64,000 bases of DNA from Patescibacteria group bacterium (GTDB taxonomy: Bacteria; Patescibacteriota; Minisyncoccia; Phycocordibacterales; UBA918): positions 63,116-127,115 of the forward strand of contig JAIEOU010000004.1 in the NCBI GenBank assembly GCA_019750255.1. Direction: 5' to 3'. Below are positions 39,245 through 63,749 of this stretch, piece after piece. Numbering within the stretch: the stretch's first letter is position 1; each line of letters opens with the position of its first letter. Under the pieces are notes generated by a model that saw nothing but the letters and a program-made list of their open reading frames with translations, searched no databases and was not told the origin of the DNA. The position numbers and the translations under genes were made by a program.

Positions 39245-40372
39245 TTATTCATCTTCGCTCTTTACCGGTTTCTCAATTGCTAGCATTTCAATACCCACAG
39301 CCGCTCCGGTAATTTTTGTAACGTCCTTATCAATCTTTCCAAGCTCCTTCTGAGCACTATTGTAGTGGTTAACTGTAGTGGAGAGGCTGTTGCCTACCTT
39401 CTTGAAGTACTCATCGTAGGCCGAGAGGTGGCGCGAGAGCTGCTCAACCTGCTTCCCTATCTGCTTGGCACTCTCTTCAATTTTAAACGCCCGAAATCCA
39501 TACAGCACTGACTGGAGGTACGCAGAAAAAGTAGTTGGAGAAACAATAATCACATTCTTGTCCTTATAGGCGTAATCGATGAGCGATCGAGTATTTACCT
39601 TTACGGAACCCACCTCATTGATGAGCAGGTCGTAGTAAATTGCTTCCGCCGGGATGTACATAAAGGCAAACGGTAACGTGCCGTCGCTTGGACGGATGTA
39701 CTTGGCCGTTTCATCTATGCGCTTTTTTAGGTCATTCTTAAACTCTTTTTCAAGGAATTCCCGCTCATCATCGGTGGTAGCGTCAACCAGGCGACGGTAG
39801 TTGTCAAGCGAAAACTTGGCATCAACCGGAATCATGCCATCCTTGCTCTCAATCACCGCATCCACCGTCTCACCACCTGGAAACTGATACTGCATCTTGT
39901 ACGAACCAGCCGGCAACATATTTTCTAGAGCGAGCTGCAAAGAAGCCTCGCCCAAATTTCCCCGCTGCTTTTGGTGCTTGAGCACCTTCTCAAGATTCTG
40001 CAGCTGCTCGGCCACGGTAAACACCTGCTTACTTGATTCGCTCACCTCACTTACGCCGCGCTGCACATGCAGCAGTTTTTCACCGACACTTTCCTGGATG
40101 TATTTAATCTGTTCGTTTACCTCTTTAGCGATGCCTTGCATCAGCTTCTGACTTTCAGAAAATTGCGAGCGACTGCCCTCCTGCATCGTCCGGTTAGTTT
40201 CCGAAAGACGATTATCCATTGTCCTCGTAAGTTCTTGGAGCTGCTGCTGCATGAGGAGCATGCTTGCGCTAGCACCCTCTGGACTCGTCGACTGCGGCCG
40301 GAGCAAAAAATAGAGCAGAACACCGTTCCCCACTACCAGCGCCGTAAACACAACAATCAGAAGCAATTCCAT
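39245..40372 (-). CDS. rmuC: DNA recombination protein RmuC
   Basis: N-terminal TM, long coiled coil, C-terminal RmuC nuclease-like domain (FAFMYIPAEAIYYDLL). Confidence 0.8.
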   Translation of the reverse strand: MELLLIVVFTALVVGNGVLLYFLLRPQSTSPEGASASMLLMQQQLQELTRTMDNRLSETNRTMQEGSRSQFSESQKLMQGIAKEVNEQIKYIQESVGEKLLHVQRGVSEVSESSKQVFTVAEQLQNLEKVLKHQKQRGNLGEASLQLALENMLPAGSYKMQYQFPGGETVDAVIESKDGMIPVDAKFSLDNYRRLVDATTDDEREFLEKEFKNDLKKRIDETAKYIRPSDGTLPFAFMYIPAEAIYYDLLINEVGSVKVNTRSLIDYAYKDKNVIIVSPTTFSAYLQSVLYGFRAFKIEESAKQIGKQVEQLSRHLSAYDEYFKKVGNSLSTTVNHYNSAQKELGKIDKDVTKITGAAVGIEMLAIEKPVKSEDE

Positions 40373-46790: not shown

Positions 46791-48536
46791 TTAGAAAACG
46801 ACTTCGTCCGTTCGTTTAACCACACTCTTACGATGCAGTGCCCTTAAAACTCGTAAAATATTGTAGTCATAGCGCTCTTCGAGCGCTTCGTATAGAGGTT
46901 TGAGGGCTGAATCCCCGTGAATGCCAATCATAGCCTCTACTTCACGAAGGGCTTCATCCAATGAAAATTGTTCCCCCATGACGATACGAAGCTGCTCTAT
47001 ACCTACTGCCTCTTCATCAATCAATTCTTCCAAATGGCTGAAGATTGTAGATTCGGCGAGTCCTCGCAGGGCGGCAATGTCCGCCACATACTTTCCTTCC
47101 ATTGCGAGTTGTCGGGTTCGTTCTTGAGTACGTTCTTTTTTAACACGCTCCACGACACTACGCTTACCACCAGCAGGCGCCACGGCGCCGGCCACAGGCA
47201 CCCTGCCACCGCGAGTCGTAACAAACAACGCCTGAAGTTTCGCCACCTCTTCTTCACCCTGTTCGGCCAATAAGTCTTCAAGCATGCTGGACTCGGTGCG
47301 AAAGCGCTCATCTTGCGCCACCACGCGCGGGTCGACCGAAAGCGCCGCAGCACCCACCCCAAGCACCTTCAGACCTTTAAGTGTACGCACACGCGAAAGC
47401 GCTACATAGCCCTGACCATACACAAAAGCTCGTGAGAGGTCCATCTCAGCAGCATCAAGCGACATTCCCTGACTTTTGTGTACGGTAATTGCCCATGCGA
47501 GGCGGAGCGGCACCTGCGTTATCTGCGCGAGCACCTTTCCTTCATCGGTTACTTCCCACGACGTGGGACGAACCACCACCCTACGCCCATCAGCCATTTC
47601 AATTTCGGGGAAGCCATCGTCAGCATCGAAGCCCACCACGCGACCGAGGGTGCCATTTACATACCCCGCCTCGAAATTATTTTTAGTACACATAACCATC
47701 GCGTCCTCTTTAAGGACGAGTGCCTGCGGAGACAGGCAGGTGCGGACCAGCCCCTCGACGAGCGGCTTCCCTCCCTTAGTAGCCATACTAAACGTGCGTC
47801 CATATCCCGGCAGTGCCTTCAGCTGCTCTAGATTCACTGCGTCTACGTCCGCATTGTGGGTATAGAGTCGGGTCGGAACAATACCTTCAAACCCAATTTC
47901 AGTTTGCTCCGAAAGTAACGTGTAGTGCTCTTCCTCAACGGCGGCGCGGCGAATAGCAGACAGCAGTCCGGCAAGCATCTCATCTTCATGTCGCCACTGC
48001 TCGGAGAGATAGCACACGAGGGGCCGCGCCGCCTCCCACGCCCGACTCGCAAACGCATACCGCATCGAATTGCCCGGCTTTGTAATCGGTGGTAATTGGA
48101 AAAAGTCACCAACAAATACCACCTGCACACCACCAAACGCTTCGTTCTTGCCTCTCGCCGTCTTTAATACCAAATCAACCATATCAAGGACTGTTCCATC
48201 GAGCATGGAGATCTCATCAATCACGAGCACCTGCGCTCGCTCAAACCGCTTTACCAATTTTTCTTTTGTCGCTATCTGATCCAGATCGTAGCGCGTGAGC
48301 GTGTCTCGCACCCCAATTCCGCTCCACGAGTGAATCGTCATGCCACCAATGTGCGTGGCGGCGATTCCTGTCGAGGCCGTCACCGCCACCGTAAGTCCCG
48401 CCGCCTCGAGGTAAGAAATGTATTCATTGAGCACGTAGGTCTTCCCTGCTCCTGGCTCACCGGTAAGAAAAACATTGGCTCCAGTTTTGAGGGCTGTCAG
48501 CGCTTGTGCTTGTGTCATTGGGAATAAGCCTACCAT
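46791..48536 (-). CDS. PIF1/RecD-like SF1B DNA helicase with C-terminal HTH region
   Basis: Walker A GEPGAGKT, Walker B LVIDEISM, motif III VFVGDFFQLPPI, motif VHKSQG; start at one of two ATGs (48536 or 48518). Confidence 0.8.
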   Translation of the reverse strand: MVGLFPMTQAQALTALKTGANVFLTGEPGAGKTYVLNEYISYLEAAGLTVAVTASTGIAATHIGGMTIHSWSGIGVRDTLTRYDLDQIATKEKLVKRFERAQVLVIDEISMLDGTVLDMVDLVLKTARGKNEAFGGVQVVFVGDFFQLPPITKPGNSMRYAFASRAWEAARPLVCYLSEQWRHEDEMLAGLLSAIRRAAVEEEHYTLLSEQTEIGFEGIVPTRLYTHNADVDAVNLEQLKALPGYGRTFSMATKGGKPLVEGLVRTCLSPQALVLKEDAMVMCTKNNFEAGYVNGTLGRVVGFDADDGFPEIEMADGRRVVVRPTSWEVTDEGKVLAQITQVPLRLAWAITVHKSQGMSLDAAEMDLSRAFVYGQGYVALSRVRTLKGLKVLGVGAAALSVDPRVVAQDERFRTESSMLEDLLAEQGEEEVAKLQALFVTTRGGRVPVAGAVAPAGGKRSVVERVKKERTQERTRQLAMEGKYVADIAALRGLAESTIFSHLEELIDEEAVGIEQLRIVMGEQFSLDEALREVEAMIGIHGDSALKPLYEALEERYDYNILRVLRALHRKSVVKRTDEVVF

Positions 48537-48558
48537 AGTGACAGGGACATGCGGTAGA

Positions 48559-50592
48559 ATGAGCGTAATGAGTGAACGTTCTTCGGTGATCATTCCTATC
48601 AAAAATGGAACGAAGCTGGTAAAAAAATTAGCTACTCCTAAGGCTGTGGTTAAGAAACCGGCCGCGCCAAAAGCGGCGCCCATTCTTTCCGCCACGCCTT
48701 CCGCCGAAACCCGTCAGGTTACGATTACGTCTCCATCTATTCCAAAAGGAGCTGCAAAAAAGCTCGCAGCAAAAAGCGATGCTAAAAGTGCCCCTAAAAA
48801 AGTGACAGCTACATCAGCTCACCACGGTCACAACCACGGTAACGCTGTTCATCCCCCCATCATGCGCCAGTTGCTCCCTGGCGAGCGCATCAACCTGAAG
48901 CGCGATCCGCTCGGTCACTTACTCGTTGAAAAAATGCTTCGTGAAGCTGGCTTCCGCGGCCTGATTTCTAGTGACAAAGACCTACTCCAAAAATACAGCA
49001 CGGACGAAAGTATTTTTGCGATTACCCCGCAAGTAGTCCTGCAGCCTAAAAATCGACGCGATGTTGAAATCGCTGTTGGAGTAATAGCACGAGAGACCAA
49101 GCGGTTCACCTCCCTGTCGCTTACCCCGCGCGCAGCCGGCACCGGCCTGTCCGGAGGATCTCTTACCGACTCGATTACCATCGACGTGTGCGCGCACCTC
49201 CATCACATTGGTGAGGTCGTAGTAAAGAAAGATAAAATTACCTTTACCTGCGAACCGGGCGCCATGTGGCGTGACGTTGAGAAAAAGCTCAAGCGGTACG
49301 ATGCCTACCTACCGCCATACACCTCCTCAAAAGATATTTGTTCAATTGGAGGCTCGATTAGCAACAACGCGGCCGGACCTGACTCCCTACGCTACGGTCA
49401 CTGTGCTGATTGGCTTGAGTCGCTCGACGTTATCCTGGCCGATGGTCACACCTACACTATCAGGCCCCTGACCTACCGCGAATATAAACTGCTCGCCAAG
49501 GAAAAGCACGAGCATGCTCGTATCGCGCGCGCTGTATTTTCTCTTATCGAAGATAATGAAAAAGATATTCTGGCCGGCAAGCCACCAACGCCAAAAAATA
49601 CTGCCGGCTATGCCCTCTGGCGGGTATTTTCAGAGGGCGTAGAAGCCTTTAAGAAAGGCAACGGCACTTTTGACCTCACCCGGGTTATTTCTGGTAGCCA
49701 GGGCACCATTGGTGTCATTACCGAAATCACTATGCGTGCGCTACCGATTCAACACGATACCACCATGCTCACCATCCCCGTCTTTGACCTCCAAGATGCT
49801 GCTGAAGTGGTTCAAAAAGCCATCGGCTTTAATCCCATCAACGTTGAAATCTATGACGCACTGACCTTTGATATGGCGCTCAAGAACCCTTCGTTCTTTA
49901 AGTCCCGCCTCACCGGCCTCGCCTACTACCGCACCATGCTCGCGATGTACAAGACCTACCACGTACGCTACAGCCGTAAAGTACCTGAATTCACCATACT
50001 TGTGACACTTGATAAAGAGACGAGTGCACGGTATACCCAGGCGGAGCTTGCGAGCGCGATGAGCGGTGGTGGCACCCGCGCACGCGTGGTCACAAGCAAG
50101 ACCGAGGTCGAAATGTTTCTACAAATCCGCCGCGCTAGTTACCTGCTTTCTAAGCTTATCGATCCAGCGAAGCGCCCCGCCGCCTTCCTAGAAGACATGA
50201 CAGTTCCACCAGAATCGATGGGTAAGTTCTTTATGGAGATTAAAGCCCTCCTTAAAGAGTTCAATGTCGTATCTGCTGTTCATGGCCACGGCGCGAATGG
50301 CCACTTCCATTTCTATCCTCTCCTCGATTTTACGAATGCGACTACCCCCCTCCTTGTTGAACGCATGGCCGAACGCTTCTACAGCACCGCTATTAAATAC
50401 AAGGGGAATATCTGTGGCGAGCATAATGACGGCATCATCCGTACCCCGTACCTCAACAAGCTGTTTACCCCAAAAATGCTCCAGCTCTTCAAGGACCTCG
50501 AGCACATCTTTGACCCTGATGACATATTCAACCCTGGTAAAAAAGTAAACCCTCGCTTCGACATCAAAAGCTCAATGAGGAAGGTGAACTAA
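48559..50592 (+). CDS. FAD-linked oxidase (GlcD/D-lactate dehydrogenase-like) with lysine/alanine/proline-rich histone-H1-like N-terminal extension
   Basis: FAD-binding PCMH domain RAAGTGLSGGS; N-terminal 110 aa KKPAAPKAAP...AAKKLAAKSDAKSAPKK plus HHGHNHGN. Confidence 0.8.
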   Translation: MSVMSERSSVIIPIKNGTKLVKKLATPKAVVKKPAAPKAAPILSATPSAETRQVTITSPSIPKGAAKKLAAKSDAKSAPKKVTATSAHHGHNHGNAVHPPIMRQLLPGERINLKRDPLGHLLVEKMLREAGFRGLISSDKDLLQKYSTDESIFAITPQVVLQPKNRRDVEIAVGVIARETKRFTSLSLTPRAAGTGLSGGSLTDSITIDVCAHLHHIGEVVVKKDKITFTCEPGAMWRDVEKKLKRYDAYLPPYTSSKDICSIGGSISNNAAGPDSLRYGHCADWLESLDVILADGHTYTIRPLTYREYKLLAKEKHEHARIARAVFSLIEDNEKDILAGKPPTPKNTAGYALWRVFSEGVEAFKKGNGTFDLTRVISGSQGTIGVITEITMRALPIQHDTTMLTIPVFDLQDAAEVVQKAIGFNPINVEIYDALTFDMALKNPSFFKSRLTGLAYYRTMLAMYKTYHVRYSRKVPEFTILVTLDKETSARYTQAELASAMSGGGTRARVVTSKTEVEMFLQIRRASYLLSKLIDPAKRPAAFLEDMTVPPESMGKFFMEIKALLKEFNVVSAVHGHGANGHFHFYPLLDFTNATTPLLVERMAERFYSTAIKYKGNICGEHNDGIIRTPYLNKLFTPKMLQLFKDLEHIFDPDDIFNPGKKVNPRFDIKSSMRKVN

Positions 50593-51404: not shown

Positions 51405-52268
51405 TCACGGATTACACCACTGACACTCCCCCGGCTCGGCTGTAGATGTCTGTTCAATAGGTAATGTCACGGTGTGCTGACATTTTTTACAAGACCGTAC
51501 CGTCGCCTTCGCGAGATCTGTCGCGAGGCCACAGCTGCAACACGGCAATCCCTTTATGACTTCGGTAACCACAAATCCCGGAATATGACACCTTGGGCAA
51601 AGGCTTTTACAATTTCGTATCAAATCAGCGGTTGCCTGCCCGATGTTTTCCCTCCTCGCCGGACAACGATGGGCGCGCATGTCGGTTTCAATAAAGATGC
51701 TTGTACAGAACCATTTTGATAAGAGCTCTTCCGCTGCAGCACGCACCGCTTCAGTCGTTCTTAGTTCTTTATACATGGATGCACTGCTCTTCTCTTTCCC
51801 CCTCACTATAATTCCCTGTTCAGGAAACCCCCACGCTACCGCGAGCGCCACCGCCTCGTCAGGTGTACGCACTGCTTCCCCTCTTACCAGCACGCTACTA
51901 CTTCGATAATGACCGACAACCTCTATATCGTTTTTTACATCTACCAAAACTACTATTTCAAGACTACTCGGCACAAACGGAAGGGACGGGTGGCTTCCAA
52001 AGCTACCTTCACTCGCGATGCCCACATCCATTCCGGTACACTCCACAGCTGCTCGCGCCTTCTTTCGTGCGGCTTCTAACTGATCCCCGGCGCGCTCTAC
52101 CTCTCGGGTAAAGGTACCGAACTGGTCGGTGTTAAAGTTTGCCGGAACCATCACATCAATACCAAGCCCCTCCTTTATAAGTGGCGAAATCACGACCTCT
52201 TTACTATGCATGGTGGCAAGTACCGCAGTCCTACCTCTCCATTCACTGAGAATGTCTTTATGTTCCAT
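51405..52268 (-). CDS. hypothetical protein with C-terminal 4x CxxC zinc-ribbon region
   Basis: CPRCH...CCSCG...CKKCQH...CQWC at C-terminus. Confidence 0.45.
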   Translation of the reverse strand: MEHKDILSEWRGRTAVLATMHSKEVVISPLIKEGLGIDVMVPANFNTDQFGTFTREVERAGDQLEAARKKARAAVECTGMDVGIASEGSFGSHPSLPFVPSSLEIVVLVDVKNDIEVVGHYRSSSVLVRGEAVRTPDEAVALAVAWGFPEQGIIVRGKEKSSASMYKELRTTEAVRAAAEELLSKWFCTSIFIETDMRAHRCPARRENIGQATADLIRNCKSLCPRCHIPGFVVTEVIKGLPCCSCGLATDLAKATVRSCKKCQHTVTLPIEQTSTAEPGECQWCNP

Positions 52269-52452: not shown

Positions 52453-53991
52453 ATGAAAGACATCAGCAATACTACGAACTGGACGGCCTGCAACAACTGC
52501 TTCGGACTGGGAACGGTCCTCCGCGAACATTCTCTAAAAAAGCGTCAGCACCAAGAGTGGCAACTGGCCACCTTTTTAAGCAACCTGGCCGGCACGAACG
52601 CTCCTAAACCGCTTAGAGAGCACCGCGACACCTGTGACGCCTGTGCCGGCTCGGGACTAATCGCTACCGCTAGCGTGAGGAAGATTATTCCCGACCACTT
52701 CCCCACCGTAGCCATTATTGGCGCTGGTATCGGAGGAGTAGCTCTAGCGGTAGCCTGTCTCCACCGCCGTATTCCTTTTACACTGTATGAGCGTGACGAA
52801 AGTTTTAGCGCTCGCTCCCAGGGCTACGGCCTCACCCTACAACAAGCCAACAAGGCTATACGTGGTTTAGGTATACAGTATCTAGCTGGAGGCATTAACA
52901 CAACGAGACACGTCGTACACAACGCGGCCGGAACAGTGCTCGGTGAATGGGGTCTCCGCAAGTGGAATAAGCCGCAAGCTGAAAACAGCACGAAACGCCG
53001 CAACGTGCACGTTGCGCGGCAGACACTACGCTCTGAACTGCTCCTCCAGCTGGGTGAGCATCCACCGGTCAGCTGGGGTTACACCCTGACCGGCATCAGG
53101 AAGAATGGAAATAGCGGCACCGATCTCCACTTCACAGTTGGCGACAAGACACACATTGCAACAGCGGATCTAGTTGTCGGAGCTGATGGTATTCGTAGTT
53201 CCGTACGGAATTTTCTGATTGGTGAAGAGGCATCGCCGCTCCACTATCTTGGCTGCGTTGTCATATTAGGCATCTGTCCACTGCAATCTCTCAAACACGT
53301 CATGACTCCACTGCTCGATTCAGCAACTGTCTTCCAAACAGTCAATGGCATAGAGCGATTATATGTCATGCCGTATGACGCGGACTCCATCATGTGGCAG
53401 TTTAGTTTCCCGCTATCTGAAATCGCCGCGAAAGCATTGAGCGCACGTGGTCCTGAAGCCCTAAAAGCAGAAGCGTTGACCCGACTGCGATGGCATGACC
53501 CAATACCGCACATTATAGAGAACACCTTAGCGGCAGACATCACCGGGTATCCCGTTTACGACCGGCCAGTGCTTGACCCGCACCTACTACACGGAGCAGA
53601 AAATGCCACTCTAATGGGCGACGCTGCCCATCCAATGAGTCCATTTAAAGGTCAGGGGGCTAATCAAGCCTTACTTGATTCCCTGTTACTCGCTCGCATG
53701 ATTTCTCTCGAGTGTGGGCCCGATTCGAAGTGGCGGCAAACGGGCCTGCGCGACGCTGTACTTGCCAAGTTCGAAAAAGAAATGATCGAGCGGTCGAAGG
53801 GTAAGGTTGAGGAATCAAGGGAAGCCGCCTACTTTCTACACTCTGAGGCAGTCCTCCACGTCAGTGACGAACCAAGAGGTTATCGGACACAGACAGCAGA
53901 GACTGCCAAGCAAAGCTACCATGAGAAACAAGTCAGACTCAGTCGGACTCAGAACGCCGGAGAAGTTATTCTAAAATCGCACTCGTTTTAG
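52453..53991 (+). CDS. FAD-dependent monooxygenase (flavoprotein hydroxylase family) with N-terminal Cys-rich extension
   Basis: GxGxx[51 protein letters not shown]-terminal CNNCFGLG...CDACAGSG; start uncertain (ORF opens at 52324). Confidence 0.75.
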
Positions 53992-55219
53992 GTAATTCTT
54001 CAAACTTAGCCTTCATTGTTGGATTACCTCGGGTCAATTTTTTAATGGTGAGGTCTTGAGCTTTATCATTTGCTAGGCGTAGGTTATTTTCAGAAGACAG
54101 CAGAGCGGCTTTCGTTTTTTCTAGTTGCGTAATGGTCTTGTCGATTCCTTCGATTGCTTCACCAAATCTCCGACCCCAGAGTTCATAATTTTTTGCAAAA
54201 CCCTCCTTAAAGAGCTGTACATTATTTTCAAAGTTGGTGATATCAATATTTTGATTCTTTACCAATGCCAGTTCAGCCTTATATTTCAGTGAATTTAATG
54301 CCGCGTTTCTAAGAAGAGTGATAATTGGAATAAAGAATTGAGGACGGACGACATACATTTTGGGATACTTGTGTGACACATCAAGTATTCCCGTATTATA
54401 TAAGTCACTTTCTGGCTCTAACATAGACACAAGTACAGCAAATTCGCACCCCTTCTCAGTGCGATCTCTATCAAGCTCTCTCAGGAAGTCCTCGTTCTTC
54501 TTCTTAGTCGCAGTTTCATCTCCTTCGTTTTTCATCTCAAACATGATTGAGATAATTTCATTTCTCGACTCATCACTCTCACGATAAATATAGTCACCTT
54601 TACTCCCCGTTTTAGAATCATTATCCTTCTCAAAATACGCGCTCTGAAAGCCGGTTGCGCGCAGCTTATTAAATTCAATCTCGCAGTGCTGCTCAAGCGT
54701 CTCCCCTACCATCTTGGTTGAAAGTTTTAGCTTTAAATCTTTTCGAAGCGTTATTTCTTCGTCTTTCAACTTAATAATTTCATCTTTTGCTTTAAGTTCA
54801 GTGGTAAATTTTTCTTTTAGGTTTGTTTCGAGTAATTGCTTCTCAATGTTTTTACTTTTGAGTTCATTTGCGAGCTCGTCCCGTTCACGCTTAATCGCGT
54901 CTAACGCTTCATTGACCGCCAGTTTTTTCTCGGTTTCAGACGCTTCAATTTTGGCTTGTAGTTTAGTGACCTCTGCATCCTTATCTGCTTTTAACTTGGC
55001 AATTTCAGTATCTTTCTTTGCAATATCTACCTGCACGGCATTCTTGGTAGTAGCCTCTGCTAATTTGACGGCATTATCTTTCTCTCTTTCCAGCGAGGCA
55101 AGACGATCATGTAATTCCTTTTCAAATTCCTTATTCCTAACTTGGGCTAAGATATCAGCAAAGCCGGCGTCATCGATTTTGAACGCTTTTTTGCAGTGCG
55201 GACAAATAATTTCATTCAT
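53966..55219 (-). CDS. DUF2130-like coiled-coil protein with N-terminal zinc ribbon
   Basis: N-terminal [13 protein letters not shown] then ~250 aa of K/E-rich coiled coil and a C-terminal globular part. Confidence 0.55.
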
Positions 55220-55773
55220 AAGCAGGCATTTAGTATGGTCAATTCTCGGTGGTGTACATATTTTCCCGAAAGGTTTCTAATACCCGTACTTTCGAGCTTC
55301 ATGACTGCTTCGGAGAGAGGCATCCACTCTACTACTGCACCAGCCTTATGTTCGTCCTCTGTCATTACGGTCTCCATTTTCTCTCCCGCCACAGTTGCCC
55401 TATAGCACTGCGATATTTGCTTTTTATGCTGTTCTTTTTTGATTTCAGTTACCGTACCGATATAGGTAATATTTTCAATGTATACTCCGGCTTCTTCAAG
55501 ACATTCTCTCTTAAGTGCCACAAGTACTGACTCCCCGTCTTCGACACCTCCGCCGGGAACTTTATAGAAATTGTGTACGGAAAAATGTACTAGCGCAACA
55601 TTGCCATCCGTATCATAGATCACACACCGTGCGGCACGACGAAGTTCCATCGTCTCCGCTTCAGTAGCTGAAGCAGCTTCAAAGTTAAAAGTAATATCGA
55701 ATGTATTCATGTTCAAATTATACAGTAGATACAGTGGTTGGCAGCAATGTTCAAAACCCAGTGGATGTACCAT
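55216..55773 (-). CDS. NUDIX hydrolase
   Basis: Nudix box [24 protein letters not shown]. Confidence 0.8.
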
Positions 55774-55872
55774 TGAACCTACCGCTCAAAACCCGTCTTG
55801 CCCGACACTAACTCACAACCCACATAGAGAAAACCATGTTTTCATAAGCTACTAACCATAACTATTGATAAC

Positions 55873-56025
55873 GGGCGAGCGCTTGGCGAGCAGCGCGGCG
55901 CACCACCACTCGCGGCGAGCGTACGGAGAGGAACAATGCCTCCACGCGCTCGGCGCGTGCGAAGCACGCGATTACACGCTTTGCGAGGTGAAATGGGTTC
56001 GCGCAAAGGTAAGTATTTCATCACA
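55873..56025 (+). repeat. GC-rich repeat family, copy A (core only, ~150 bp)
   Basis: last ~100 nt identical to copy C (gagcgtacggagaggaacaatgcctccacgcgctcggcgcgtgcgaagcacgcg...ggtaagtatttcatcaca). Confidence 0.7.
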
Positions 56026-56034
56026 AAAAGCAAA

Positions 56035-56156: not shown

Positions 56157-56741
56157 TTAGCTCTTTGCAGAAGTCAAAAAGTCCCGTAACTCGTCAATTG
56201 TTTTTGTATCACCTCGTAGTACACCATCATACACATCAACTGATATAAACTCTTTTCCAACCCCATATAGGTTCTTCCCAATAAGTTCTTCTTTCAGCAA
56301 AAGTATAGCGGTGCGGTGTTCATCACTTATGGTTAAAAGCTCTTCTGCATAGCGGTTTGTATCTCCTGTATACCACTCTGGTTTTTGTAGCCAAATGTCT
56401 AGTTTCCAAACATTGTCACCGAAATTGATGTCGGGAGACACCCAGTAACCAAAAGGTCTTTTTTCTGAATGTGTATGTGGGTAATTTACTCTATCTGCAG
56501 ATTTGAACTTTGAGGTATAGTCCAATCTTATGAGTTCACCAGAAAGCTTGGCAAAAAAATCTTTAGATACGTCATCGCTAACAACATCAATGTCCAAATC
56601 AGGATAGTTTAGAAGTTTATAGGAATAGCTTCCACCAACTGATACCTTTCCGTATTGTTCAAGAATTGGTAATAGCGTTTTTTCCAGTAGTAAGGATGCT
56701 TCGTCGTGAAGTGCGTTTTGTTTTTGTAAAAGTGGGTGCAT
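56157..56741 (-). CDS. nucleotidyltransferase (Pol beta superfamily) domain protein
   Basis: GGSYSYKLLNYPDLDIDVV = GS...D.D NTase motif; 194 aa. Confidence 0.6.
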   Translation of the reverse strand: MHPLLQKQNALHDEASLLLEKTLLPILEQYGKVSVGGSYSYKLLNYPDLDIDVVSDDVSKDFFAKLSGELIRLDYTSKFKSADRVNYPHTHSEKRPFGYWVSPDINFGDNVWKLDIWLQKPEWYTGDTNRYAEELLTISDEHRTAILLLKEELIGKNLYGVGKEFISVDVYDGVLRGDTKTIDELRDFLTSAKS

Positions 56742-56816: not shown

Positions 56817-57070
56817 TGTGATGAAATACTTACCTTTGCGCGAACCCATTTCACCTCGCAAAGCGAGTGATTGCGTGCCTCGCACGCGCCGAGCGCGTGG
56901 TGGTTTTGTACCTCTCCGTACGCTCGACGCGGGTGGTGGCGCGCCCCGCCGCTCGCTAACCGCTCGCCCCCAACCAATGAAATATCCTTACTTTTTGATT
57001 TTTCGGTGGAGGGGTCTGGGGAGGAGCCGACAAAAAATTGAAAGGATATTTCATTGGTTGGGGGTCGCCG
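56817..57070 (-). repeat. GC-rich repeat family, copy B (full, ~255 bp, inverted relative to A and C)
   Basis: reverse complement matches copy C almost base for base; contains perfect 21-bp inverted repeat arms 56967-56987 / 57044-57064. Confidence 0.75.
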
Positions 57071-57274
57071 CTTCGTCCTCCAAAAAGCTCCGTTTTAGTC
57101 TCCATCTACTTGAGAGCCTACCACTTCGCTTTTTTACGTCCTCGCGTCGAGCGTGGCACGCTTCCCGTATACAGCGCGCGTGGTATATCGAGAGTCCGCT
57201 CACACTACGCAACCACCTCGCATAGGCACGCTCGCATCCGCTCGCGCCGCCTGCTCGTCGCTAACGCTAATGTG

Positions 57275-58579
57275 CTATTTAAACTTCGAGAATAAATTAA
57301 CTATTGATTTTAAAGTTTCATTATCAGGCACTATTTCTTTAAGTTCTTTGGCTTTAGTAATAATGTCGTCAATGTCGAGACCTTCACTTTTTTCTTGTAC
57401 GTCATTTTGACTTGATGAATTACGCTGAGGAGAATAGCCTTCAAAGGGCTCAGAGTATAAGCTGGCCATCGACTCTCGTATAAATTGACCTGTTGGAACG
57501 TCCGTTCGCTTGATTTCTTCAATCAAAAAGTTTGTATGCTCTCTCATAACCACAGCACGAGCTGCTTTAAAAGCATATTTCTCGTTTAGCCTTCTTTCTA
57601 TCCCATACTGTCTAATTGAAAAGCCTATAAGTAGCAGGAGTGGTGATGTGAGAGTGAGTCTGTAAATTAACACTCGCAACTCTGGAACCGAATCCAGACC
57701 ATTAAAAACGTACAAAAGTACAAAAGATAAACCTATGACACTGAGTACGAAAACTGCTAACCAGACAACCGCTGTAACTCGTAGCATCCTTTCACGTTGC
57801 TGAAACGCATTAGCGAAGCCGGTGTCAGTGATAAGATTGGTGATTTTTTCAACCTCATCTCGTCTACTCTTTGCAATTTCCAGATTATCCTGAATTTCGA
57901 TACGGAGTGTATCAGAAATTGTCTTATTAGCTTTAATTTCTTCTAAGTATTTCAGGCTCTCATCTCGAAAAGACTGAATTTCAATAAAAAGCGCACCGGA
58001 TTTCTTCTGTAAGTTTGTTGAGTTGGCAAGTATTGCTTCTAGGCCGGTTTTCTCATCAGAAATTTTTCCATAAACAACCAAAAAGCCCTCATAGGCTTTT
58101 TGCATCTGATCAATCTTGCTTTGAACTTGAGCTAGTAGGTCTTCTATACTCAGCAGTCTTTGCTGTGCTGCTTTCTTGAGTGTATCGATATCGTTATGAA
58201 GGCTTGTGGCGGCTGTAAGCAGTGTGCTAATCTCTCCGCTCTTTCCTTTAACTTCACCTTGTAGTGTTGCAAATTCATTAAGACCATTTTCAATACTCGC
58301 TAGCACTGATTCAGCTCTTTCGAGATCACCTTTAATGGCTGTTATATGGGTTGTTGAGTTGTTTTTAGCATTCTCAATTGAAGCTAAATAACCGCGCGCA
58401 TCTGCACTTAATTTTTCAACGTTTCCTACACTATTTTTTAGCCCTGCTTCAGCCGACTCGTACTGGGTTTGTAAGGCAGTAACCTTCTCAATCAGTTCAC
58501 TCGCCTTACTAAATTTAGCGCGTAGCTGTTTCAGTTCTTCCGTACTTATAGGTTCTGAAGTCTGATTTTCGTCGTCCAT
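57275..58579 (-). CDS. coiled-coil protein with C-terminal two-TM hairpin
   Basis: ~250 aa heptad-rich region then hydrophobic segments VVWLAVFVLSVIGLSFVLLYV and LLLLIGFSI. Confidence 0.5.
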   Translation of the reverse strand: MDDENQTSEPISTEELKQLRAKFSKASELIEKVTALQTQYESAEAGLKNSVGNVEKLSADARGYLASIENAKNNSTTHITAIKGDLERAESVLASIENGLNEFATLQGEVKGKSGEISTLLTAATSLHNDIDTLKKAAQQRLLSIEDLLAQVQSKIDQMQKAYEGFLVVYGKISDEKTGLEAILANSTNLQKKSGALFIEIQSFRDESLKYLEEIKANKTISDTLRIEIQDNLEIAKSRRDEVEKITNLITDTGFANAFQQRERMLRVTAVVWLAVFVLSVIGLSFVLLYVFNGLDSVPELRVLIYRLTLTSPLLLLIGFSIRQYGIERRLNEKYAFKAARAVVMREHTNFLIEEIKRTDVPTGQFIRESMASLYSEPFEGYSPQRNSSSQNDVQEKSEGLDIDDIITKAKELKEIVPDNETLKSIVNLFSKFK

Positions 58580-58662: not shown

Positions 58663-59343
58663 ATGATTCAGTGGATGAAAGCCACCTGGTACTATCAAGT
58701 TCTTGCTGTCGTTTTGGGTGTAGTAATTTTCTATATTGGATTTAGCGTTGGTGAGCGTACTACTGTACAAGTAACTACGGAAGTACTAACGCAAGCAACT
58801 GCTACTACCTCCGAAGCAACTACACCCACAGAGACCGGGCTAATAACTTTCAAGGGTCTTGAAATGACTGAAAAAGCGCTCCCGCCACTACCAACCCAAG
58901 AAGAATGGGACGAGGTTTTACGCGGGAGTGGTGTTTTTGAGAATAGATATAAAGAAGACGCGGTCAAATTCGGTGATATTGCAAAGCGATACCACAGTAT
59001 TAGCGACGATAACAATCCTTACATAAACGTTGAAGTTGCCGATGTTACAGGAGACGGGCAACCTGAGCAGATTGTCTCACTAAGTGGTGGCGGTTCATAC
59101 GGTGTTGACACATATGAGATTGTGCAAGGAGAAAGCATAATTGCAACCATTGATGCCTACTCAGTTGGTCGCGGTGCCTCGCTCAAACCCAATGAGTCCA
59201 AGGATGGATTTGAGATGGTGTGGTTCCGTGACGATATGTACCCAGGTGGTTATTGCTGCCCAAGTGCCCAAATGGTCACTAAATTTAAATACCACAAGGG
59301 TGAGTATATGGCAGTTAGTGAGACAGTAGAGCTATTGAACTAA
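58663..59343 (+). CDS. hypothetical membrane-anchored/secreted protein
   Basis: N-terminal TM YYQVLAVVLGVVIFYIGF, T/A-rich linker, globular C-terminus. Confidence 0.45.
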   Translation: MIQWMKATWYYQVLAVVLGVVIFYIGFSVGERTTVQVTTEVLTQATATTSEATTPTETGLITFKGLEMTEKALPPLPTQEEWDEVLRGSGVFENRYKEDAVKFGDIAKRYHSISDDNNPYINVEVADVTGDGQPEQIVSLSGGGSYGVDTYEIVQGESIIATIDAYSVGRGASLKPNESKDGFEMVWFRDDMYPGGYCCPSAQMVTKFKYHKGEYMAVSETVELLN

Positions 59344-59444: not shown

Positions 59445-59807
59445 TTAAGCAGCACCACGCGAATCTGAAATAATTTTCTCCGCATCAGTAAGAACTTCTT
59501 TAATCGCATCAAAGTTCTCACATTCTTCAATTTCATCCGCAAGTACGTTTAGCCAGTGGCGCTTATCATCTGAACGCGAAACAGGTGGTGGGGTGAACCA
59601 TCCTTGAACAACCTTCGCATCATCACCATATACAGCCCAGACTAGGTTATTTGAATTGAACATACTCCAGAAACTTCCTCCAGGGGGTAACTTCCATATT
59701 CTCACTTCAGAACAATATCCATCTTTATACTTTGCAAAAACTCGGATGCAGAAATCCGAAAATTCAATCACTGCATGCTTTTCATTTATCGTTCTTATAT
59801 TTGCCAT
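59445..59807 (-). CDS. hypothetical protein (120 aa)
   Basis: ORF only. Confidence 0.4.
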   Translation of the reverse strand: MANIRTINEKHAVIEFSDFCIRVFAKYKDGYCSEVRIWKLPPGGSFWSMFNSNNLVWAVYGDDAKVVQGWFTPPPVSRSDDKRHWLNVLADEIEECENFDAIKEVLTDAEKIISDSRGAA

Positions 59808-59968: not shown

Positions 59969-60946
59969 TTATTTTTTTATATAGTACTTGTCGAACTCTT
60001 TAAATATCTCAGTGGAGTAGTACTTTTTAGATGTACCAGTCTGCTTAATAAAATCCAGAAATCTTTCGTCGGAATATTTTTTATCACTCTCCAGTCGCTT
60101 CTTATGTGCGTAAAATCCATTATTAGTTACAAAATCCATATATCGCTCTTGCATTTTTTTAACTAGTTCTTGATAGTCCATCGGATACTTATTTTTGAAC
60201 TGCTCTTCTACGTCAACTCTTATCTTCAATGTGGCGCTTGGGTCGTATTGCACCCTCAATGCATCCGGAGTGGAGCTTTTAGAAAACTTCGTCTCAATTT
60301 TTAAAGAAATATTATGATCCATTTTCTCATCAGACGGATACTGGCTTTCTTTTTGTAGAACCTGAGCTAGTAAATTTTTAACCTGTGTAGATTGTTTATT
60401 GACTGAAAAACTTTCCATTTCAAAGGAGTGAAAAAAAGAAATTGGCATCAAGTAAAAATTATATTGGCTTAAGTCGTTGTCAAACCACTCATTAAACATC
60501 CTCACGTAACTTTTCAAGTTTGCAGTCCCTACTTCTAAGACCTTCTTTTGAAAAAATGGGTCTTTATTTAAAAAATGAATTGCATTATCTCGTATCTCAA
60601 TTAAGAGATTAAGGTTTTCCTTTAAAATATCTGGCAATCCCAATTTTTCCATTGCTCCTCTAATTTCTATTGTCATCGGATTGAGAGAGCGGTTGAGTTT
60701 AGGATAAAAACGTTTGGACGGTGTGCCGTTTTTATTTACACTTCGCTCTTGTACATAAATTGATCGCAAATCATTAGCACTATCCTTCAAAATTTTTGAT
60801 TTTAGAAGTAATTCCCATGCGTTAATCATCAATATTGAAAATGTCTCCTCGCGATACTTGAAATCTGGTTTGTTATAAACCTCTATCGCTGAAATGGCTG
60901 AGGCAATTGATTTTTCTAGCAGTGCTTTGTTTCTCTCTTTTGCCAT
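59969..60946 (-). CDS. hypothetical protein, last gene of the C-M-R operon
   Basis: 20 bp downstream of the DUF262-HNH gene on the same strand; no secure family assignment. Confidence 0.5.
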   Translation of the reverse strand: MAKERNKALLEKSIASAISAIEVYNKPDFKYREETFSILMINAWELLLKSKILKDSANDLRSIYVQERSVNKNGTPSKRFYPKLNRSLNPMTIEIRGAMEKLGLPDILKENLNLLIEIRDNAIHFLNKDPFFQKKVLEVGTANLKSYVRMFNEWFDNDLSQYNFYLMPISFFHSFEMESFSVNKQSTQVKNLLAQVLQKESQYPSDEKMDHNISLKIETKFSKSSTPDALRVQYDPSATLKIRVDVEEQFKNKYPMDYQELVKKMQERYMDFVTNNGFYAHKKRLESDKKYSDERFLDFIKQTGTSKKYYSTEIFKEFDKYYIKK

Positions 60947-60965
60947 ATCTCTAAATTACAGCTAT

Positions 60966-62069
60966 CTACTTACCAGACTTTCGGCGGTTGCAGTCCTTGC
61001 ACAACATTTGGCAATTTTCTGCGGTAGTTTTCCCGCCCTCGTGCCATGGGGTAATGTGGTCGGCTTCCATTTCTCCAATTTCAAACTGACTACCGCATTT
61101 CGGGCAGATACCTTTCTGGCGCTCGTAGGCTTCACGTTTCATTTTGTCGTTGAAAGCGCGGATTGAAAGGTGACGCTCTTGGCGGGTAAGAACGTACGGA
61201 TAAATACCAGACTTTTTAGTAACGTCCTCGTCTTGCATCAGAGTCGAGATTTCTTCCTCTAGTTTTACAGCGTTGAGTTTCTTGCCATTGTACTCGTTGT
61301 GTAGCTCGCCCCAATTTACGCTCGCCATTTCTCGGCGGTAATTTGGAAACGTCTGGCGCACCCACGCTATAACGCTTTGAAAATACTCCCACAACTCATT
61401 GGCATTTTTGTCGTGCTGGTGTTTTGCCATGTAGCCGGCAACTTCATCGTTATTGATCCAAGAAAGTGCTGTTTCGAGGTATTCTTGGCGGATTGGTGAG
61501 CCAGTGAGTAGTGCACCACCATCGTTAGCAAGCAAGTATGCCGCACAACCAGACTTACTAAATTTGAGTTTTGCATCTGAGAGCCACTCGCCAGTGTATA
61601 CAGCGTTTTTCAGTTCTTGCGGGGTAAGTTTTTCTCCTGCAATGTTGATTATTTCAAACCAGTCCAATTTTTCTTTATCCGTTCCTTCGCAGTGGTAAAT
61701 CATTAGTTCGTAGTCTAAAATCTGCTCCTGTTCCTCTTTGGTGAGGTTATGGAACATGGCGGTACGCCCATTAAAATCTACTGAGAAGTCATTATTTACA
61801 AACTGACCGATACTGATAGTTCGCTGCTGTCCGTCGAGTACTTCAAAACTTCCTTCACTTGTCTTGACCCAATACATCACGTTGAGGGGAAAGCCTTTCT
61901 TGACAGTATCAATTACCGCATTACGTTGCTTTTCTTTGTAGACAAACTCTCGTTGGTATTTTGGGCGCACATCGAGCTTGCCACCATAGGCAACTACACC
62001 TTCCTCGTTGTTGTCTGCATAGCCAGCGACAACGTCTCGTATCTTAATTCTGTATAGTTCGATTTTCAT
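60966..62069 (-). CDS. DUF262 (ParB/GmrS-like) + HNH endonuclease fusion, GmrSD-family-like nuclease
   Basis: N-terminal DUF262 signature RPKYQREFVW...LDGQQRT; C-terminal HNH CPKCG...DHITPWHEGG...NCQMLCKDCN; ATGA overlap with upstream MTase stop. Confidence 0.8.
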   Translation of the reverse strand: MKIELYRIKIRDVVAGYADNNEEGVVAYGGKLDVRPKYQREFVYKEKQRNAVIDTVKKGFPLNVMYWVKTSEGSFEVLDGQQRTISIGQFVNNDFSVDFNGRTAMFHNLTKEEQEQILDYELMIYHCEGTDKEKLDWFEIINIAGEKLTPQELKNAVYTGEWLSDAKLKFSKSGCAAYLLANDGGALLTGSPIRQEYLETALSWINNDEVAGYMAKHQHDKNANELWEYFQSVIAWVRQTFPNYRREMASVNWGELHNEYNGKKLNAVKLEEEISTLMQDEDVTKKSGIYPYVLTRQERHLSIRAFNDKMKREAYERQKGICPKCGSQFEIGEMEADHITPWHEGGKTTAENCQMLCKDCNRRKSGK

Positions 62070-63190
62070 ACTATTTTTTTTACTTTAAGATTTTTGATAA
62101 CGATACGGTCGTACAAGCGTTGGTACGTTCCATCTTTATTTCTAATGTAAAACCGTGGGCCACCAGGAGAGTATGTTCCTTTTTGAGCAAGTTTAGTCAT
62201 GGGTTCACCAAGTGTCTTGCTAGAACCAATAATTTCAAACTGCATTGGATTGTACTTGTCTATAAAGGTGATAGGTACGCCGATGTGACCTTCATAATCC
62301 ATCGGTATGTCAGAAACTTTCGAGACTTCAATTGCATTGTAATTAAAGTATGTTGGGTATTCAGAAGGTGTATATTTTTTATAAAGTACTTGCTCTTGAA
62401 ATCTTTTAGTAGTGTCCAAATTTGTAAACCAGTAAATCCTTCCCATACTAAAATACTTAATACCGTTCTCAATCTTTTTTCTTGATTCCGTTGGTATATC
62501 GTAGTCCATTGGTACCTGAAACCATTTAGTTCCACCATTATCATAACCAAGCCACAATTTGTTATCTTTGATGTAGTTGAAGGTTTCTTTATATGTTATA
62601 GCGTTTTGATCACCAAGAATTAAAAACTTTTTGTTGTATTCCATTAATTGAGCCACGTATTCACGAAATAGTGAGAAGGGTGGATTTGTAACAACAATAT
62701 CTGCCTGCTTAAGCAGCTCAATACTTTCTTCGCTCCTGAAGTCACCCTCACTCTCCATCGGAGACCATTCGTTATTTTTGTTTGCTTTAAGTTGTTCAGC
62801 AATATCGCGTAGGTCATAAGCGCAATCACCATCCAAATCGTGAACTTCGTTAATTATAAACTTGTTTGCTGTAGCTTTTGGGCGACCTTTCGGAGTCTCA
62901 AGTACTTGAACACCACCAAACAAGTCAATTTGTGTATTCGCAATGGGTGATGGCTTATAACTCGTTGCGATGAGACGCTTAAGTCCTAATGCATTAAAAT
63001 TACCTGCAAAGTACTTAAAAAAGTTGCTCTCAAACGGGTCGTCACAATTACAGTAGACGACCTTTCCTCGAAACTGCTCTTTGTAATGTTTGAGTTCCTT
63101 TTCAATATCAATGAGTTGAGTATAAAACTCATCTTTCTTTGCTTGTCCGGCCTTATTAAGACCCATATTTAAAGTTGGCTTTGTGCTCAT
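62066..63190 (-). CDS. N6-adenine DNA methyltransferase (EcoRI-methylase-like family)
   Basis: DIVVTNPPFS (motif IV NPPF); N-terminal KDEFYTQ...VVYCNCDDP resembling EcoRI-MTase family N-terminus (recollection, not searched). Confidence 0.75.
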   Translation of the reverse strand: MSTKPTLNMGLNKAGQAKKDEFYTQLIDIEKELKHYKEQFRGKVVYCNCDDPFESNFFKYFAGNFNALGLKRLIATSYKPSPIANTQIDLFGGVQVLETPKGRPKATANKFIINEVHDLDGDCAYDLRDIAEQLKANKNNEWSPMESEGDFRSEESIELLKQADIVVTNPPFSLFREYVAQLMEYNKKFLILGDQNAITYKETFNYIKDNKLWLGYDNGGTKWFQVPMDYDIPTESRKKIENGIKYFSMGRIYWFTNLDTTKRFQEQVLYKKYTPSEYPTYFNYNAIEVSKVSDIPMDYEGHIGVPITFIDKYNPMQFEIIGSSKTLGEPMTKLAQKGTYSPGGPRFYIRNKDGTYQRLYDRIVIKNLKVKKIV

Positions 63191-63191
63191 G

Positions 63192-63389
63192 TTACTTTTT
63201 CAAAAGGTCGTCTACCTTAACTTCGAGCGCGGTGGCAATTTTGGAAAGAGAGTTAATGGTGGGGTTTTGATTCGTGCCGTCCTCAATCTTCACAACGGTG
63301 CTAAGTGACACATCAGCAAGCCTGGCAACCCTTTCGAGTGAGTAACCTTTTTCGGCACGAATCTTTTTTATGTTACTCGCTATGCTCAT
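63192..63389 (-). CDS. XRE-family HTH transcriptional regulator (controller C-protein-like, 65 aa)
   Basis: IKKIRAEKGYSLERVARLADVSLSTVVKIEDG helix-turn-helix; stop 1 nt before MTase ATG. Confidence 0.8.
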   Translation of the reverse strand: MSIASNIKKIRAEKGYSLERVARLADVSLSTVVKIEDGTNQNPTINSLSKIATALEVKVDDLLKK

Positions 63390-63414
63390 AATCAGTATTG
63401 TGTAATTTGATACT

Positions 63415-63424
63415 AGTATTATAA
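63415..63424. promoter_or_regulatory. palindrome ATACTAGTAT overlapping a TATAAT-like -10, candidate C-box/operator for the XRE-MTase operon
   Basis: seen in sequence 26-35 bp upstream of the XRE start codon (minus strand). Confidence 0.35.
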
Positions 63425-63491
63425 TACAAAGTATGTACTCCTTATATCTTAATCATACGGGACTTTGGAGCATTTGCAATTTTACGGACTC

Positions 63492-63749
63492 ATTGCGGCG
63501 ACCCCCAACCAATGAAATATCCTTTCAATTTTTTGTCGGCTCCTCCCCAGACCCCTCCACCGAAAAATCAAAAAGTAAGGATATTTCATTGGTTGGGGGC
63601 GAGCGGTTAGCGAGCGGCGGGGCGCGCCACCACCCGCGTCGAGCGTACGGAGAGGAACAATGCCTCCACGCGCTCGGCGCGTGCGAAGCACGCGATTACA
63701 CGCTTTGCGAGGTGAAATGGGTTCGCGCAAAGGTAAGTATTTCATCACA
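63492..63749 (+). repeat. GC-rich repeat family, copy C (full, ~255 bp)
   Basis: perfect 21-bp inverted repeat arms 63502-63522 / 63579-63599 with 56-nt spacer, then core identical to copy A. Confidence 0.75.

Follow-up and report, generated by a model that had tools for sequence, protein, structure and literature searches.

A coupled EcoRI-type methylase and DUF262-HNH nuclease in a Patescibacteria defence island belong to a widespread, uncharacterised restriction-modification family

Within a 64,000-nucleotide (nt) stretch of contig JAIEOU010000004.1 from a Patescibacteria group bacterium (the window, whose positions serve as coordinates throughout), our analysis revealed four closely packed open reading frames (ORFs), all on the minus strand, that encode a 65-amino-acid (aa) helix-turn-helix (HTH) protein, an EcoRI-family methyltransferase (M), a nuclease that joins a DUF262 domain to an HNH domain (R), and a 325-aa protein. 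We interpret this block, with a probability of roughly 0.6, as a restriction-modification operon of horizontally acquired origin, in which M would modify DNA and R would cut DNA that is unmarked, followed at its 3' end by an independent defence gene. The locus is a further member of a catalogued, uncharacterised restriction-modification family: of 80 related loci (here and below, the 80 best R-family loci, unless another number is given), 77 have an EcoRI-type methylase upstream of R and in the same orientation, and the pairing is already catalogued, since PADLOC profiles match R as a Type II restriction enzyme and M as a Type II methyltransferase. A first-pass annotation, made from the letters of the window, had placed four minus-strand genes here, and the ORF list agrees with it on their positions. 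The elements of the block are:

63452..63479, minus strand: candidate sigma-70-type promoter, TTGCAA-16 nt-TATGAT (consensus scan)
63410..63434, minus strand: candidate operator, ATAC-TTT-GTAT / TATA / ATAC-TA-GTAT, a putative HTH binding site (palindrome search)
63192..63389, minus strand: XRE-family HTH regulator, 65 aa, putative operon controller (Pfam HTH_3, PADLOC and PDB matches)
62066..63190, minus strand: EcoRI-family N6-adenine DNA methyltransferase M, 374 aa (Pfam EcoRI_methylase, PADLOC MTase_II, motifs)
62114..62224, minus strand: hypervariable C-terminal cassette of M, aa 323-359, putative target-recognition element (family alignment)
60966..62069, minus strand: predicted restriction nuclease R, 367 aa, with a DUF262/ParB-Srx-like nucleoside triphosphate (NTP)-binding domain, a helical middle and a zinc-finger HNH
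61596..61970, minus strand: DUF262 (GmrSD_N) domain of R, with DGQQR at 61821-61835 (Pfam, motif)
60975..61106, minus strand: HNH nuclease domain of R, CxxC ... DH ... N ... CxxC (Pfam, motif)
59969..60946, minus strand: independent DUF3644/HEPN defence-candidate gene, 325 aa, with Rx4H at R119-H124 (Pfam, PADLOC PDC-S19)

The gene junctions, as read from the sequence, largely match their earlier description: a single nucleotide separates the HTH stop from the M start (TAA-C-ATG), and the M stop overlaps the R start as ATGA, but the gap before the last gene is 19 nt (TAG + 19 nt + ATG) and not 20. The domain calls (HTH_3, EcoRI_methylase, GmrSD_N/DUF262 and HNH) were likewise recovered with Pfam. 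Specifically, M aligns with positions 2-344 of the 345-position EcoRI_methylase profile (1e-132) and with PADLOC MTase_II ('Type II methyltransferase') at 1e-113, and in alignment its core is ~46% identical to genuine M.EcoRI; a PDB sequence search with M returned no match. Its catalytic and AdoMet-binding motifs are intact, with NPPF at aa 169-172 and conservation of the DEFYT, CNCDDP, GDFRS, TNPPFSLF and GVPITF motifs; the non-functional methyltransferase of a degraded island, which the first-pass annotation had named as counting against its reading, is thus not what the motifs show. NCBI has proteins 100% identical to M and to the 325-aa protein, both from a Patescibacteria group bacterium.

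In Pfam, R matches GmrSD_N/DUF262 at aa 34-158 (4.6e-19) and HNH (PF01844) at aa 322-365 (1.3e-14); the DGQQR motif occupies aa 79-83, and the HNH residues D337-H338 sit between two CxxC pairs. Across 62 diverse family members, Q39 R40, D79 G80 R83, N142, Q151 E152 N155, W236, C322, G346 and N352 are invariant and the HNH histidine H338 is almost so. With the D, G and R of DGQQR invariant and the HNH histidine nearly so, both active sites of R are maintained across the family. Further, R matches the PADLOC profile REase_II PDLC03418 ('Type II restriction enzyme') from end to end (2.2e-139; aa 1-367 against positions 1-372 of 372), a profile whose origin could not be traced in the PADLOC papers, from which any biochemically characterised member could not be established either. 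RefSeq labels the R family 'DUF262 domain-containing protein' and M 'adenine-specific methyltransferase EcoRI family protein'.

The linkage of M to R is near-universal across the family. The three loci without the upstream methylase either lack upstream sequence or have a RhuM- or Bro-like gene there, beyond which the contig stops. Of the 72 loci in which the distance from the M stop to the R start could be measured, 36 have a spacing of +1 nt and 8 have the ATGA overlap, and in 22 an insert of 0.35-1.9 kb lies between the two genes (e.g., L007, L014, L020, L067 and L078). The products of the inserted genes are RhuM, DUF2130, Fic/DOC, T5orf172 and trypsin-like proteins, and Type I restriction-modification operons have embedded genes of these same kinds. 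The sequence 3' of R is highly variable among related loci and rich in defence-type ATPases (AAA_21, AAA_15, AAA_13 and OLD-TOPRIM), and it includes a Zeta toxin.

The family itself is very large. A word-indexed search with R gave at least 8000 matches, with identities to R of 77-94% throughout the top 120 clusters; an exhaustive search of 50%-identity representatives gave 11564 matches, 510 of them at E <= 1e-30, with more than 100 full-length R-family clusters at 36-60% identity among those representatives; and a scan of GTDB, sampled at one genome for each species, confirmed 585 R-family loci. The hosts found in that species scan are mostly Patescibacteria, together with metagenome-assembled genomes labelled Bdellovibrionales, Gammaproteobacteria, Poribacteria and Atribacterota. 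Plasmids of cultured Bacillota, Actinomycetota and Pseudomonadota (Macrococcoides, Mammaliicoccus, Aeromonas, Variovorax, Gordonia and lactobacilli) carry the M-R pair as well, and so does a cultured phage, Flavobacterium phage vB_FspS_laban6-1 (L091, 10219-12581), where the two genes overlap by 4 nt and adjoin the tape-measure gene. Hence, the first-pass annotation was right to see a restriction-modification system with a GmrSD-like nuclease, while its suggestion that a methylase with a DUF262-HNH partner is a new or unusual combination does not survive the count of 77 in 80 loci, the plasmids and the phage; the outcome that it had itself set against its reading, namely that R would fall in a catalogued Type II family with its usual methyltransferase partner, is what PDLC03418 and the 77 loci reveal.

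Its DUF262 domain might place R among the modification-dependent Type IV enzymes, such as GmrSD or BrxU, with M as an orphan methylase neighbour or with the whole block as a degraded island, an explanation that we find scarcely credible. R does resemble GmrSD, BrxU and SspE in its N-terminal DUF262 domain with DGQQR, which by analogy with those enzymes would act as an NTP-dependent switch, and its best structural match is BrxU. In sequence, R and BrxU are only marginally similar (E 0.005 over 36 residues), and a PDB sequence search with R gave domain-level matches only. Unlike these enzymes, which are ~560-590 aa long, R has 367 aa and ends in a zinc-finger HNH (PF01844) with two CxxC pairs in place of DUF1524, for which a Pfam search of R gave no match, and a translationally coupled methylase stands beside it in essentially every locus. 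The constant position of R behind a methyltransferase implies that modification blocks R, as opposed to R being modification-dependent, and an enzyme that depended on its partner's N6-methyladenine (m6A) would kill the host. We rejected the combination of a Type IV enzyme and an orphan methylase because the coupled M-R linkage is obligate across phyla and DUF1524 is missing, and the degraded island because all catalytic motifs are intact in both M and R.

By the criteria of Type II systems, the locus qualifies on three points: an intact methyltransferase, a separate linked nuclease gene, and the match of R to a catalogued Type II restriction enzyme profile. One close comparison is the EcoRI system itself, for which the genuine M.EcoRI is found at L093:2504-3481 on the Escherichia coli ColE1-type plasmid pU90-3, adjoining R.EcoRI. 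M is a full-length homologue of M.EcoRI, and both systems are two-gene mobile modules found on plasmids. In contrast, R.EcoRI is an unrelated 277-aa PD-(D/E)xK nuclease encoded upstream of its methylase, whereas the R in the window is a DUF262-HNH protein encoded downstream.

An unexpected pattern appears at the level of the family: R is more conserved than M. R proteins share 78.7% identity on average in pairwise comparison and M proteins 62.9%, R is the more conserved of the two in 98.5% of pairs, and the pairwise distances of R and M correlate at only 0.26. The divergence of M is mosaic. First, its middle segment (aa 78-160) occurs in three discrete variants. Second, the C-terminal cassette is bounded by sharply conserved flanks ('YNPxQFEIIG' and 'Y.RILIKNKK') and falls into 24 classes in 65 loci; the 116 closest M proteins have 13 classes. 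The shortest cassettes are 22 aa long. Cassette and middle-segment variants assort independently of each other. The M core does track the cassette (identity 0.773 within a class and 0.691 between classes), while R does not: its identity is 0.790 within cassette classes and 0.785 between them, and, over 244 variable columns of R, the strongest association with cassette class has a z of 4.3 and the mean z is 0.26. Finally, the cassette of M.EcoRI, KFRKGVDEKDLSINGKCPYFRILIKNK, is 86% identical to that of one class of DUF262-partnered methylases (L024, L046, L051, L056, L057 and L073), compared with 46% for the cores. The window M belongs to a different cassette class from M.EcoRI, so its target is probably not GAATTC. 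An AlphaFold2 model of M has low confidence in the cassette region.

A module that is discrete, recombining and strongly constrained looks like a target-recognition element, and we infer that the cassette is what sets the target sequence of M. If it is, then R, which stays constant across the cassette classes, cannot read the site independently. R would then either take its target from M, as the nucleases of Type III and Type I systems do, or sense methylation generically, as SspE does; with both options, a nucleotide-gated switch would be in keeping with the conserved NTP-binding motif DGQQR. Taken together, a constant nuclease alongside a methylase with a swapped part, seen across the family, does not fit classical Type II well and suggests that M may supply target specificity, as in Type III systems. 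The likeness to Type III (Mod and Res) is one of working principle only: a swappable recognition element in the methylase and a conserved nuclease partner without covariation, the order mod then res with tight coupling, and a nucleotide-binding domain in the nuclease subunit. The parts differ, as R has neither a superfamily 2 helicase/ATPase nor a PD-(D/E)xK nuclease, and M is of the EcoRI-type monomeric class and not a Mod protein. The family is not a member of Type III, and a complex of M with R is only hypothetical.

The strongest competing explanation, unlikely overall in our judgement yet a serious contender, is a classical Type II system in which R alone reads one fixed sequence, every M of the family modifies that one sequence, and the cassette is a surface loop unrelated to specificity that is diversifying, for example, against phage inhibitors. 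PADLOC places R among the Type II restriction enzymes, M.EcoRI is itself paired with an independent nuclease, one specificity shared by the whole family would agree with the uniformly high conservation of R, and 22 aa is small for a recognition element. A surface loop of this kind sits poorly with cassette classes that are discrete, sharply flanked and recombining independently of the rest of M, and the retention of the EcoRI-type cassette at 86% against cores at 46% marks it as a constrained functional module. To our knowledge, a nuclease that evolves more slowly than its methylase is atypical for Type II; and independent recognition by R has to contend with the lack of covariation across 24 cassette classes and with a DGQQR motif of the NTP-binding type. 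An effector similar to SspE or DndI, which would read m6A generically as a 'self' mark that sets its NTPase and nuclease state and would attack unmarked DNA without sequence recognition, appears improbable: if any m6A counted as self, diversification of M would bring no benefit, and yet there are 24 cassette classes, while R lacks DUF1524 and the extra domains of SspE and is ~200 aa shorter.

A broader proposal, which we regard as possible though on the doubtful side, is that pairs of an EcoRI-type methylase and a DUF262-HNH nuclease constitute a distinct restriction-modification class that has been filed as 'Type II', in which M would be the sole sequence reader through its recombining C-terminal cassette, and the invariant R would be a ParB/Srx-fold NTP-switch that is targeted by M or communicates along DNA.

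The small HTH gene adds a possible layer of control. Its product matches Pfam HTH_3 (2.7e-12), the PADLOC profiles capH and HTH_VI (2.6e-11 each) and Control_protein (7.4e-8), and, in the PDB, SinR (4.7e-8), C.BclI (4e-4) and C.AhdI (6e-3). Two short palindromes, 4 bp apart, lie between the candidate promoter and the HTH start codon and are partly conserved in L034 and L048, two loci in which the promoter hexamers TTGCAA/TATGAT are also kept upstream of HTH genes that are 75% identical. The palindromes may be the binding site of the HTH protein, and autoregulation of the whole C-M-R operon is plausible on this basis; given that gene order, any control by the HTH protein acts on M and R together. 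The resemblance to controller (C)-protein systems such as PvuII, AhdI and Esp1396I, which the first-pass annotation had stressed, is weak. What holds is a small HTH_3 gene at the head of the operon, 1 nt before M, with paired short palindromes around a 4-bp TATA upstream. What does not hold is the usual arrangement, in which C and R share an operon and M is transcribed separately; further, in sequence the window HTH protein resembles SinR and CapH more than it does C.BclI or C.AhdI, and an HTH gene occurs upstream of M in only 13 of 77 related loci.

The fourth gene, for which the first-pass annotation saw no secure family and suggested an accessory role, has a clear identity. The 325-aa protein matches Pfam DUF3644 at 1.1e-48 and, over its full length, the PADLOC single-gene candidate PDC-S19 at 1.7e-118, and its Rx4H motif reads RDNAIH (aa 119-124). 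DUF3644 is a HEPN domain, and the EC042_2821 family occurs in restriction-modification operons (PMC3710099); among DUF3644-type HEPN proteins, phage defence has been reported for HEC-08 (bioRxiv 10.1101/2024.01.29.577857) and clearance of a conjugative plasmid for Ishtar (bioRxiv 10.64898/2026.07.06.735840). PDC-S19 goes unmentioned in the searchable literature. With the EC042_2821 family, PDC-S19, HEC-08 and Ishtar, the window protein shares an N-terminal DUF3644 HEPN domain with Rx4H and the habit of a single-gene module near restriction-modification operons; the comparison with HEC-08, which has zinc ribbons, and with Ishtar, which has a beta-rich domain, covers the N-terminal domain, ahead of a C-terminal region of ~125 aa.

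That all four genes form one integrated defence system with the HEPN protein as an obligatory subunit is very improbable. Its position on the same strand, 19 nt behind R and with no predicted terminator in between, would be in keeping with such a system. Against this, a DUF3644 gene stands 3' of R in 0 of the 80 related loci, where the neighbours vary so widely, and close homologues (61-70% identity) are found after an AlwI-type restriction-modification system that includes two methylases, after a DUF559 protein of 1065 aa, or in a different setting; PADLOC, too, lists the family as a single-gene candidate. The absence of co-conservation, which the first-pass annotation had named as counting against its own view, and the homologues beside unrelated nuclease and restriction-modification operons show that the HEPN gene is an independent module with a tendency to attach itself 3' of nuclease operons, not an accessory subunit. 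On these grounds, the four-gene system was rejected.

The block is AT-rich, as previously claimed, with a G+C content (GC) of 0.391 compared with 0.506 in window positions 1-53999, and low GC spans the whole stretch from ~54 kb on, the fall starting near 54 kb. Rfam and tRNA scans of the operon region gave no match, and the DNA of the window had none in E. coli genomes. A GC-rich repeat of 255 nt has three copies (63495-63749; 56817-57071, inverted; and 55864-56028, partial), none of them outside the final 8 kb of the window, two of which, 97% identical and inverted, flank a 6.4-kb segment holding the operon. Each copy contains a 30-nt internal inverted repeat and folds far better than shuffled sequence (z -6.8); the repeat has no Rfam match, and short matches to it adjoin the same restriction-modification module in L034 and L048.

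Exactly at the ~54 kb GC drop lies a DUF2130 gene (8e-85; 53966-55219, minus strand), overlapped by a NUDIX gene (55216-55773, minus strand). Elsewhere, DUF2130 genes separate M from R in three related loci and lie 3' of R in one, and DUF2130 looks like a gene of defence islands or one embedded in restriction-modification systems. Four further island ORFs have no family match (57275-58579, minus; 58663-59343, plus; 59445-59807, minus; and 56157-56741, minus), one of which encodes a 434-aa coiled-coil protein with hydrophobic segments at its C-terminus and weak matches to the coiled coils of SMC, LmuB and JetC. Outside the island are a PIF1-like helicase with a C-terminal HTH_40 (46791-48695, minus) and, at 39245-40372 (minus) and 51405-52268 (minus), an RmuC family protein and a DUF6671 protein, respectively.

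How the restriction-modification operon might work can be proposed from these observations. The block would have been acquired horizontally by the Patescibacteria genome, after which M would place m6A on its target sites in host DNA, and R would cut DNA without that mark, its own activity presumably being blocked by M methylation. The ATGA coupling would allow the methylase to be made first and M and R to be kept in a fixed ratio, and the XRE-type HTH protein would most likely autoregulate the whole operon through the palindromes between promoter and start codon. R probably obtains its target from M, in a Type III-like division of labour and without reading sequence itself, because the nuclease is unchanged when the cassette of M changes. 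The DUF3644/HEPN protein, on the same transcript but outside the restriction-modification machinery, would be a separate predicted RNase that probably acts in abortive infection or plasmid clearance.

Several observations weigh against this interpretation or parts of it. Restriction by R, its block by m6A and any NTP requirement are predictions, and the searched literature yielded no characterised member of the R family, no published biochemistry and no report of this M-R pairing. Palindrome and k-mer avoidance, assessed for the window, for all 80 loci together and for each cassette class, gave no convincing target signal in what was an underpowered analysis; in the EcoRI-cassette class, GAATTC was seen 9 times against 15 expected, a difference that is not significant in a similarly underpowered comparison. 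On the regulatory side, the promoter is a candidate, the consensus scan found region-wide sites no more often than expected by chance, and the HTH gene precedes M instead of R, unlike the usual C-protein arrangement. Finally, a natural in-frame M-R fusion (L090:6001-8067, protein P0134), which would in itself count in favour of the interpretation and comes from an organism in which TGA encodes Trp (genetic code 4), has NPPF changed to FPSF and CNCDDP to CNAGDG with nuclease motifs intact; it may be a decaying copy, and we give it little weight because its methylase motifs are degenerate.

The block in the window is, in itself, an ordinary one: a horizontally acquired defence island that combines a catalogued restriction-modification operon with a known HEPN candidate. 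Within the candidate phyla radiation, few restriction-modification modules are as common as the family to which it belongs. If its members do form a distinct class, that class would be widespread, especially in Patescibacteria, and would have arrived at a Type III-like logic from entirely different parts. Confirmation that specificity resides in M would yield a compact, reprogrammable two-protein restriction system, and would place a ParB/Srx-type NTPase at work in restriction that is blocked by modification and not dependent on it.

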